From Escherichia coli (GTDB lineage: Bacteria; Pseudomonadota; Gammaproteobacteria; Enterobacterales; Enterobacteriaceae): DNA of 45,604 nt. How positions within the stretch are numbered: position 1 is the first letter of the stretch; the number at the start of each line of letters is the position of its first letter. The stretch lies in NCBI RefSeq assembly GCF_003334335.1, contig NZ_QOWQ01000036.1. The stretch is one strand, 5' to 3'. The translations under genes and the position numbers were made by a program. The notes beneath the pieces are model-generated. The model did not search any database. It was not told where the DNA came from and saw only the letters and a program-made list of their open reading frames with translations. Positions 72-40,066 of the stretch are shown here, piece after piece.

Positions 72-220
72 GATACTGCGCTGGATACTACAAACTACTT
101 CCACCGAACCCACCGTCATTAGTGGTGGGTCGTGCAGGATGACTCGCTTCGCTCGCCCTACGGGCCGTTGCTGACGCAACGTTATCCTACACGCTTAACA
201 TCTGTCTTCGATGTTAAAAC

Positions 221-296
221 TGGTGGGTCGTGCAGGATTCGAACCTGCGACCAATTGATTAAAAGTCAACTGCTCTACCAACTGAGCTAACGACCC
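221..296 (-). tRNA. lysW: tRNA-Lys (anticodon UUU)
   Basis: 76-nt reverse-complement match to tRNA-Lys(UUU) with encoded CCA; anticodon loop CTTTTAA. Confidence 0.9.
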
Positions 297-376: not shown

Positions 377-511
377 GATACTACGCTGGATACTACAACT
401 AACTATGTTAGTGGTGGGTCGTGCAGGATGACTCGACTTCGTCTCGCCCTTCGGGCCGTTGCTCATGCAACGTTATCCTTCACGTTTTACTACCGCTTCC
501 ACCTTAGCGAT

Positions 512-587
512 TGGTGGGTCGTGCAGGATTCGAACCTGCGACCAATTGATTAAAAGTCAACTGCTCTACCAACTGAGCTAACGACCC
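512..587 (-). tRNA. lysT: tRNA-Lys (anticodon UUU)
   Basis: 76-nt sequence identical to the copy at 221-296; first tRNA after cpoB. Confidence 0.9.
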
Positions 588-709
588 ACTTTTTCGTTGC
601 TTTCGGTTTGTTTGATATCCCGTGGCAACGGCGGCATATATTACTGATTTCAGACTTGAGCGCAACAAAAATTTCGATGTAGATCACTCAACTGCTTATG
701 ATTCGCACG

Positions 710-743
710 ACACGACCAGAAATAATGCGACTTCTGGTCGTGT
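710..743 (-). other. 12-bp stem / 10-nt loop hairpin between cpoB stop and the tRNA operon
   Basis: cacgaccagaa (711-721) pairs perfectly with ttctggtcgtg (732-742), extended by a710:t743; no U-tract follows on either strand. Confidence 0.4.
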
Positions 744-751
744 GTTATGCA

Positions 752-1543
752 TTACATCGCGTTCAGACGTTTTTGTGCCTGTTTAGCGCCATCAGTACCA
801 GGGTATTTACTGATAACCTGCTGGTATACGGCTTTCGCTTTTGCGGTGTCACCTTTGTCCTGCATGATGACGCCGACTTTAAACATCGCATCTGCAGCCT
901 TTGGTGACTTCGGATAGTTTTTCACTACCGAAGCAAAATAGTACGCCGCATCATCTTTTTTACCCTTGTTGTAGTTTAACTGACCCAGCCAATAATTGGC
1001 GTTTGGCAGGTAAGTTGAATCAGGGTAATTTTTGATGAAATTCTGAAATGCCACCATTGCGTCATCCTGGCGGGATTTATCCTGCACCAGCGCAATAGCT
1101 GCATTGTAATCCGTGTTTGCATTACCGCTTTTCACCGGCGCGCCAGCATTCGCAGTACCAGCATCAGCTGTCGGCGTCGTTGATGCCGCCGCACCGCTTT
1201 GATCGCCGCTGGTTGATTGCGCCGCTGCACCACCGCTGCTGAGGCTGTCGATCTGCAACAGGATCTGCTTTTGCCGCTCCACGACCTGATTCAGTTGATA
1301 CTGATTTTCCTGAATCTGACCACGCAGGGAATCAATATCGGATTGATTATCAGAAAGTTGTTGCTGGAGTTGGGTTAAAAGCTGGCTGTGAGCATTAGAA
1401 ATACGCTCAAGTTGAGTGACGCGGTCTTCGACCGAGCCTGAGCCGACACTACTGATTGGTGCCTGAGCAAAAGCGGCCCAGGGGGCCGCTATACCAACCA
1501 GTAACGACAGACTCAATAGTTGATGTCTGAAGTTACTGCTCAT
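752..1543 (-). CDS. cpoB: Cell division coordinator CpoB (YbgF), TPR protein
   Basis: 263-aa ORF with signal peptide, coiled-coil and TPR-like C-terminus; 9 nt downstream of pal. Confidence 0.93.
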   Translation of the reverse strand: MSSNFRHQLLSLSLLVGIAAPWAAFAQAPISSVGSGSVEDRVTQLERISNAHSQLLTQLQQQLSDNQSDIDSLRGQIQENQYQLNQVVERQKQILLQIDSLSSGGAAAQSTSGDQSGAAASTTPTADAGTANAGAPVKSGNANTDYNAAIALVQDKSRQDDAMVAFQNFIKNYPDSTYLPNANYWLGQLNYNKGKKDDAAYYFASVVKNYPKSPKAADAMFKVGVIMQDKGDTAKAKAVYQQVISKYPGTDGAKQAQKRLNAM

Positions 1544-1552
1544 GCAATTCTC

Positions 1553-2098
<546 letters not shown>

Positions 2099-37570: not shown

Positions 37571-38314
37571 TTATGCAGGATTAGGAATATCAATAAAGGT
37601 CACATCAAGATCGGTATTTTCATTCAGCCACTCGCTCAATGCGCGAATACCACCACGTTCAGTGGCATGGTGACCTGCAGCATAAAAATGCAATCCCTGC
37701 TCGCGGGCTGAATGAATGGTCTGTTCAGAAACTTCGCCAGTAATAAAAGCATCCACGCCAAAACGCGCGGCGCTATCGATAAAACTTTGCCCGCCGCCCG
37801 TGCACCAGGCGACGCGCTGGACCACCTCAGGTCCGGTATCGCCACACCATAACGGCTTACGTCCCAGACGCGCTTCAATCCAGGAAGCCAGCTCCAGTCC
37901 CGGCACAGGCATGGTCAGTTCGCCCCACGGCACCAACGGCTCAATTTCGCCCATGACCGTGATCCCCAGTAACGCCGCCAGCTGTGCGTTATTGCCCAGC
38001 TCAGGATGTGCGTCAAGCGGCAAATGCCAGCCATACAGGTTGATATCATTCGCCAGCAACGTTTTTAAACGGTTACGCTTCATTCCGCGAATGACCGGAG
38101 ACTCTCCTTTCCAGAAGTAGCCATGATGCACAATGACCGCATCCGCGCCCAGACGCACTGCCTCATCGAGCAAAGCCTGGCTGGCGGTGACACCGGTAAC
38201 AATTTTTTGCACCGTCTCTTTGCCTTCCACCTGCAAACCATTCGGCGCGTAATCACTAATCGCCGCGCTGTTCAGTTTTTCGTTAATCAGTTGTTCCAGT
38301 TCGGTGTTTTTCAT
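37571..38314 (-). CDS. ybgI: Nif3-family metal-binding protein (GTP cyclohydrolase 1 type 2 homolog)
   Basis: 247 aa, His-rich metal-binding motifs typical of Nif3/YbgI. Confidence 0.9.
   Translation of the reverse strand: MKNTELEQLINEKLNSAAISDYAPNGLQVEGKETVQKIVTGVTASQALLDEAVRLGADAVIVHHGYFWKGESPVIRGMKRNRLKTLLANDINLYGWHLPLDAHPELGNNAQLAALLGITVMGEIEPLVPWGELTMPVPGLELASWIEARLGRKPLWCGDTGPEVVQRVAWCTGGGQSFIDSAARFGVDAFITGEVSEQTIHSAREQGLHFYAAGHHATERGGIRALSEWLNENTDLDVTFIDIPNPA

Positions 38315-38401: not shown

Positions 38402-40066
<1,665 letters not shown>

Follow-up and report, generated by a model that had tools for sequence, protein, structure and literature searches.

A conserved stem-loop without a U-tract at the mapped 3' end of the tol-pal-cpoB mRNA of Escherichia coli

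In E. coli, the tol-pal-cpoB mRNA ends at a structure and not at a classic terminator. The structure is a hairpin in the spacer between cpoB and the lysT tRNA operon. Comparative evidence supports the conclusion that selection acts on its helix in the cpoB-sense form, as RNA or at least as a single strand, rather than on a palindrome in double-stranded DNA or on an antisense RNA. We consider it probable that this stem-loop, which lacks a U-tract, both fixes the position of the steady-state 3' end of the tol-pal-cpoB transcript and shields that end from degradation.

The hairpin and its surroundings

The window, meaning the whole stretch of E. coli DNA that was analyzed (45,604 nucleotides), carries in its first 5 kb, on the minus strand throughout, the E. 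coli genes tolA-tolB-pal-cpoB and then the lysT tRNA operon. The locus was identified by tRNA scanning, from the list of open reading frames (ORFs), and by BLAST against complete E. coli genomes, and the presence of a tRNA operon downstream of cpoB (Lys, Val, Lys, Val) was confirmed. On the MG1655 chromosome, cpoB occupies 779598-780389 and the cpoB-lysT spacer occupies 780390-780553. The features of the region, in window coordinates, are as follows.

752..1543, minus strand: cpoB (ybgF) coding sequence, 263 aa, with its TAA stop at 752-754 (ORF list and E. coli annotation)
732..743, minus strand: 5' arm of the hairpin, RNA ACACGACCAGAA; all 72 distinct sequences share its GACCAG core (734-739)
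722..731, minus strand: 10 nt between the arms, RNA GUCGCAUUAU, with an apical 6-nt loop, CGCAUU, at 724-729
710..721, minus strand: 3' arm of the hairpin, RNA UUCUGGUCGUGU, in which UUCUGGUC is invariant
707, minus strand: steady-state 3' end of the cpoB transcript, MG1655 780434, mapped onto the window from Term-seq (PMC7815308)
704..708, minus strand: 3' half of an outer helix, GUGCG, which pairs with 747-751 (UGCAU) over 5 bp
694..708, no strand assigned: candidate FIS site I, GTGCGAATCATAAGC, a perfect match to the degenerate consensus GNNYRNNWNNYRNNC, found in 72/72 sequences
630..674, minus strand: inferred lysT promoter, deduced from sequence and conservation and not a mapped start
666-674, minus strand: UP-like element AAATTTTTG of the inferred lysT promoter
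660-665, minus strand: -35 element TTGCGC of the inferred lysT promoter, separated from the -10 by a 16-nt spacer
638-643, minus strand: -10 element TAATAT of the inferred lysT promoter
630-637, minus strand: GC-rich discriminator ATGCCGCC of the inferred lysT promoter
512..587, minus strand: lysT, tRNA-Lys(UUU), first gene of a seven-tRNA operon, 164 nt past the cpoB stop

An initial annotation made from the sequence had described a perfect 12-bp stem 9 nt past the cpoB stop, and a repeat finder and the coordinates agree with it. The inverted repeat ACACGACCAGAA/TTCTGGTCGTGT (window 710-721 and 732-743) has arms of 12 nt that are 100% complementary across a 10-nt gap, and in the cpoB-sense RNA 8 nt follow the stop before the stem begins at the ninth. 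That RNA reads UAA-UGCAUAAC-ACACGACCAGAA-GUCGCAUUAU-UUCUGGUCGUGU-CGUGCGAAUC. The outer two positions on each side of the inter-arm segment are also pairable (G·U and U-A), and folding of the cpoB-sense RNA gave a 14-bp stem with a 6-nt loop plus, in E. coli, the 5-bp outer helix, which is weakly conserved elsewhere. The fold is far more stable than expected by chance: an 81-nt stretch reached -29.7 kcal/mol versus -18.2 ± 2.7 kcal/mol for shuffled sequences (z = -4.28), and none of 200 shuffles was as stable. Perfect 12-bp stems with loops of 3 to 12 nt are likewise rare, numbering two in the 45.6-kb window versus 0.05 expected from dinucleotide-preserving shuffles (4 of 100 shuffles held any such stem).

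The initial annotation had also seen no U-run after the stem on either strand, which both the sequence and a terminator scan bear out. The stem is followed by CGUGCGAAUC on the cpoB strand and by GUUAUGCAUU on the other, and the scan returned no terminator-like match at the hairpin. A search of Rfam 15 gave no covariance-model match at 700-750 even at E ≤ 1, while detecting the neighboring tRNA, RtT, and CpoB thermometer elements.

Several other elements of the window were recorded. The other perfect 12-bp short-gap repeat, TATTTATGCAAT-N10-ATTGCATAAATA at 38462-38495, lies in the divergent intergenic region between a 247-aa ORF (37571-38314, minus strand) and a 493-aa ORF (38585-40066, plus strand), and it looks more like an operator than a terminator. 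A short palindrome centered on ATGCAT (window 743-756; 10 nt, 90% complementary) overlaps the cpoB stop and is probably incidental. Matches to Rfam RtT RNA (RF00391) at 412-580 (minus strand, 58.8 bits) and 123-289 (minus strand, 54.9 bits) occupy the spacers 3' of lysT and lysW, which contain repeats similar to the 3' portion of tRNA-Lys (tggtgggtcgtgcaggat... on the plus strand); the RefSeq "RtT sRNA" annotation is placed only after the last tRNA of the operon. At the upstream end of cpoB, the Rfam CpoB_ybgF_thermometer (RF02782; 142 bits; window 1514-1652, minus strand) spans the pal-cpoB junction. The CpoB protein of several E. coli/Shigella entries has 250 to 252 aa versus 263 aa at 94 to 95% identity, which indicates an in-frame length variant of about 12 residues, perhaps located in the Ala/Gln/Ser-rich linker.

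Position of the mapped cpoB 3' end

The initial annotation had named 3'-end mapping as the check on the hairpin, with transcript ends elsewhere counting against it. Published Term-seq data for MG1655 (Adams et al. 2021, PMC7815308, supplementary file 1) list a "primary" cpoB 3' end at 780434 (+), with 12,432 reads in LB at an OD of 0.4 and 5,719 reads in M63 glucose; the end is absent from the list for LB at an OD of 2.0. The printed Term-seq string is identical to the window, and the 3' end is its character 51, a convention that we checked on the sgrS terminator. The mapped end is position 45 of the spacer, 3 nt beyond the last base of the 12-bp stem, so that the RNA terminates in ...UUCUGGUCGUGUCGU. 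The published end thus coincides with the hairpin, and the proposal that the hairpin defines the 3' end of the tol-pal-cpoB mRNA is supported, with the end at the base of the stem; the stabilizing role that had been proposed along with it we infer from the class of stem-loops to which the hairpin appears to belong (see below). An internal cpoB 3' end is listed in the same Term-seq data (PMC7815308) at MG1655 779674, 76 nt into the gene, after the GGCCCCCUGGGCCGCUUUU hairpin.

The 780434 end is therefore already public in a table, and the description of the hairpin is new relative to the literature searched. Full-text searches for the hairpin sequence found no paper describing it, and searches for ybgF together with lysT found none either. 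The SMRT-Cappable-seq supplements contain no mention of cpoB, ybgF, or lysT, and the supplements of Dar and Sorek in PLoS Genetics list the operon and nothing further.

Conservation and selection of the helix as RNA

With 213-nt and 54-nt queries, the locus was found in 5426/5426 complete E. coli genomes, at one place per genome that always adjoins cpoB; a second place was found in 3 of the 5426. For comparison across species, 80 loci were fetched through the CpoB protein, a choice independent of the hairpin, and 79 were parsed. The genera sampled include Salmonella, Citrobacter, Enterobacter, Klebsiella, Raoultella, Kluyvera, Kosakonia, Atlantibacter, Siccibacter, Franconibacter, and Cedecea. 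The fetched loci all keep cpoB followed by tRNA-Lys at 159 to 175 nt, and the hairpin is present in all 79 parsed Enterobacteriaceae loci, where the contiguous stem alone averages -16.1 kcal/mol. In none of these 79 loci do the 10 nt that follow the stem contain more than two consecutive U residues.

An RNAalifold alignment of 72 distinct sequences (196 columns) yielded the same hairpin as its consensus structure. The six pairs of GACCAG/CUGGUC show no variation in the 72 sequences, the A-U pairs flanking this core are 93% conserved, and a G in the loop (alignment column 45, window 728) is invariant. Of 62 four-fold degenerate sites at conserved cpoB residues, only 7 are invariant in these genomes, and the major allele has an average frequency of 0.70. 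The constraint on the hairpin core therefore equals that on the -35, -10, and discriminator of lysT and far exceeds that on the cpoB four-fold sites.

Outside the core, the pattern of change bears on whether the helix is maintained as RNA or as DNA. The four basal pairs covary among GC, AU, and GU; at pair 30-63, for example, 34 sequences have GC, 20 have AU, and 13 have GU. Cells in which both sides of a pair have changed number 56, versus 23.8 ± 6.8 in shuffles, and none of 500 shuffles reached the observed value. When the 3' partner was slid by 1 to 3 columns, pairing fell from 87% to 35 to 51%. The non-Watson-Crick cells of the 14-bp helix comprise 63 G·U versus a single A·C, spread over eight pairs; these cells are not phylogenetically independent, and the direction is the same at every variable pair. 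Since a G·U pair in the cpoB sense is an A·C mismatch on the other strand, we conclude that the helix is selected as cpoB-sense RNA, or at least as the single strand of that sense.

We examined four more distant lineages, including endosymbionts, whose CpoB is 51 to 56% identical. Three of the four (L083, L084/L085, and L087) keep cpoB followed by tRNA-Lys at 130 to 158 nt. The GACCAG palindrome was found in none of the distant lineages examined, and only some have any hairpin at this place, which indicates that the hairpin is a family-level feature of the Enterobacteriaceae. In L087 (1941-2025), a 10-bp stem, GGAAGCGCAA/TTGCGCTTCC, is possible in the spacer that follows cpoB, and its 3' arm takes in the -35 hexamer of the tRNA-Lys promoter. 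Seven bases of the E. coli 5' arm (CACGACC) are identical to bases of the 3' acceptor strand of tRNA-Lys; this match occurs in Escherichia only, and we regard it as a coincidence.

A metagenome scan with the pattern GACCAGAAA-N4-8-TTTCTGGTC returned at least 120 matches. Among the matches listed, 52 are the same cpoB-lysT locus, all with an 8-nt gap, and 68 others have gaps of 4 to 8 nt of diverse sequence. The 14 of these 68 that were inspected lie in unrelated contexts, in coding sequence or in ordinary T-tailed terminators, and by a rough estimate the number of other matches is about that expected by chance for 18 fixed bases in such a collection. We conclude that the hairpin is a single-locus element without a dispersed family.

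Origin of the 3' end and of the invariant core

The known elements that the hairpin most resembles are the protective stem-loops described by Dar and Sorek in 2018 (PMC6061677), who reported that E. coli 3' ends without intrinsic terminators are made by PNPase and RNase II, which trim the RNA back to a stem. Like those elements, the cpoB hairpin is a stable stem-loop with neither a U-tract nor an upstream A-tract, lies 3' of the last gene of an operon, and has a steady-state 3' end immediately after the stem. Assignment to this functional kind, the 3' protective stem-loop, is our best reading, and the protective role of the cpoB hairpin would follow by analogy. The analogy is incomplete: at cpoB, no bicyclomycin-sensitive region is called and no C-rich stretch lies downstream, a strong tRNA promoter is located 45 nt beyond the stem, and the stem core is invariant in sequence across a bacterial family, a property that has not been described for the class.

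As a protective stem-loop, the hairpin would be passed by the polymerase, and the transcript would be released or cut further downstream. Release might come from weak or Rho-type termination, from a roadblock that proteins and polymerase form at the very active lysT promoter, or, after read-through into the tRNA operon, from cutting at the lysT precursor by RNase P or RNase E. PNPase or RNase II would then trim the unstructured tail in the 3'-to-5' direction until it met the stem, leaving ...UUCUGGUCGUGUCGU-3'. The stem would shield the last cistron, cpoB, from degradation at its 3' end, and the hairpin would let the mRNA and the tRNA operon, which begins 164 nt further on, meet separate fates.

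Adams et al. (PMC7815308, supplementary file 2) called no Rho-termination region between the hairpin and lysT (7804xx-7805xx), and the nearest one lies inside cpoB, at 779749. The 122 nt past the hairpin contain 25 C versus 26 G, with C/G ratios of 0.6 to 1.1 in 78-nt windows, and no rut-like sequence was found downstream of the hairpin. Because no Rho region was called and the downstream sequence is not C-rich, a Rho-dependent stop followed by trimming back is not supported here; at the same time, the strong lysT promoter about 45 nt beyond the stem would mask read-through signals, including Rho-linked ones. Transcription of tol-pal-cpoB might also continue into the tRNA operon as a rule, with RNase P then freeing the mRNA and the hairpin serving as an insulator. 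Cotranscripts of mRNA and tRNA that are split by RNase P, such as secG-leuU, and the processing of tRNA operons (PMC4176162) offer a parallel: as at cpoB-lysT, a protein gene immediately precedes tRNA genes on the same strand. An RNase P cut at the 5' end of the tRNA would open an entry for exonucleases, and the hairpin would stop them. Unlike for secG-leuU, no cpoB-lysT cotranscript has been reported: in rnpA49 cells the largest lysT species is about 1100 nt and a cpoB-lysT cotranscript is not mentioned (PMC4176162). A species of about 1100 nt has the size expected from a start at the lysT promoter, and a minor species would escape notice. The possibility that ProQ binds this 3' hairpin gained no support: one supplement does not mention the gene, and Salmonella ybgF was not significantly changed in proQ data sets.

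We weighed three other explanations for an RNA end at this hairpin. It is unlikely that the hairpin is a non-canonical intrinsic terminator, at which the hairpin and a pause just after it would free a fraction of polymerases without a U-tract. The stem is very stable, and the hairpin resembles an intrinsic terminator in its GC core, in its size and energy, and in following a stop codon directly; the sequence at the mapped end (U|G, preceded by G at -10 and -11) also fits the elemental pause motif, G-10 Y-1 G+1. However, the +1 G is not conserved, being A in most genera, and the U-rich tract of 7 to 8 nt that marks intrinsic terminators is lacking in 79/79 loci, which strengthens the early judgment that this is unlikely to be a classic intrinsic terminator. 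Moreover, intrinsic terminators release the RNA 7 to 9 nt after the stem, whereas the cpoB RNA ends just 3 nt from the stem base; release there would need the hybrid to be already melted, so the end looks trimmed. That no Rho region was called at the hairpin (PMC7815308) is consistent with termination by the hairpin itself. Processing by RNase III, as in the early mRNAs of phage T7, appears very unlikely. On this explanation, the 14 bp and the 5-bp outer helix would form a substrate of about 20 bp that is cut in or near an asymmetric internal loop, leaving the upstream mRNA with a hairpin end. The E. coli fold has a suitable shape (5 bp, a 3x1 internal loop, and 14 bp), and the mapped end falls within the outer helix, 2 nt along its 3' side; but two of the five outer-helix pairs are unpaired in most sequences (73% of cells paired overall), and many genera have only the 13- to 14-bp helix, which is too short for RNase III.

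A trivial explanation would be that the palindrome arose by chance or is one copy of a dispersed repeat such as REP. Its intergenic palindromic form is all that points that way, and the low number of such stems expected per window (about 0.05), the single place beside cpoB in the 5426 E. coli genomes (with a second in three), the lack of an Rfam match, and the conservation across genera rule it out. REP elements that act as 3' stabilizers, as in malE-malF, are similarly intergenic palindromes able to block 3'-to-5' exonucleases, but the cpoB hairpin is locus specific and single copy and has no resemblance to the REP consensus.

A protective stem-loop thus remains the preferred explanation for the 3' end, yet a purely structural barrier does not account for the six never-varying core pairs and the loop G. 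A barrier needs stability and not a given sequence, and the steps from G-C to G·U seen at other pairs were open to the core as well. One tentative explanation is that the same 34 bp of DNA also lie within the upstream activating region of lysT and are bound there by FIS or another protein, and that this binding accounts for the invariant core sequence. The parts of the inferred lysT promoter are invariant or nearly so across genera, and the center of the hairpin lies at about -95 from the inferred lysT start. The candidate site GTGCGAATCATAAGC is centered at about -70, the classic position of FIS site I in stable-RNA promoters, and is present as GTGCAAATACTAAGC in the outgroup L084. Each arm of the hairpin is the center of a match to at least 6 of 7 positions of the FIS consensus: one lies at about -90 and occurs in 59/72 sequences, and the other lies about 11 bp upstream of it and occurs in 72/72. 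A further FIS-like match occurs at about -112 in 67/72. The invariant loop G would be position -7 of one of the FIS-like sites on the arms and +4 of the other, and the core matches the -35 and -10 in its invariance and far exceeds the cpoB four-fold sites. As in the FIS upstream activating regions of the stable-RNA promoters tyrT and rrnB P1, the lysT promoter, with its UP-like A/T tract and GC discriminator, is preceded by helically phased matches to the FIS consensus, here at about -70, -90, and -112. Fis is also given as an activator of the lysT operon in a compiled table (PMC10100675).

Other observations weigh against this explanation. The FIS consensus is weak, with about 1 chance match per 512 positions, and although 6 of 7 key positions are matched on each arm of the E. 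coli hairpin, three of the six invariant pairs (A-U, C-G, and G-C) are not key FIS positions. The palindrome itself corresponds to no FIS-site architecture described so far. The outgroups retain the promoter and the -70 site without the palindrome, so that the palindrome is not needed for the promoter in general. The strand-specific wobble pairs point to selection at the RNA level, and any role of the DNA can therefore only be an additional one. FIS-like sites as the reason for the invariant core are thus no more than suggestive. We regard as unlikely a sequence-specific dual-use element, in which a protein would recognize the GACCAGAAA/UUUCUGGUC core and the loop G, whether in the RNA or, on the DNA, as part of a FIS-type upstream activating region. 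By eye, the palindrome fits no operator consensus that we know of among those of FadR, NagC/Mlc, Cra, Lrp, and CRP.

The promoter downstream was itself highly conserved. The core segment CAGTAATATATGCCGCCGTTGCC is invariant in the 72 distinct sequences except for a substitution of the last base in one of them, and the promoter core AGTAATATATGCCGCCGTTGCC occurs exactly in L084, whose CpoB is only 55% identical, with a similar one in L087.

The placement of this 3' end matters for operon maps, for terminator annotation, and for engineering of the cpoB-lysT junction. A deletion or tag at the 3' end of cpoB would remove a conserved, probable stabilizer and would also encroach on sequence upstream of a major tRNA promoter. 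The hairpin also offers a test case for how ends of this kind arise beside a strong promoter, being conserved, single copy, associated with a mapped end, free of evidence for Rho, and adjacent to a strong promoter. It is otherwise ordinary, but the invariance of its core hints at an extra constraint. If the same DNA does serve lysT, one 34-bp segment would both end the mRNA of an envelope-division operon and help to drive the growth-rate-controlled lysT promoter.
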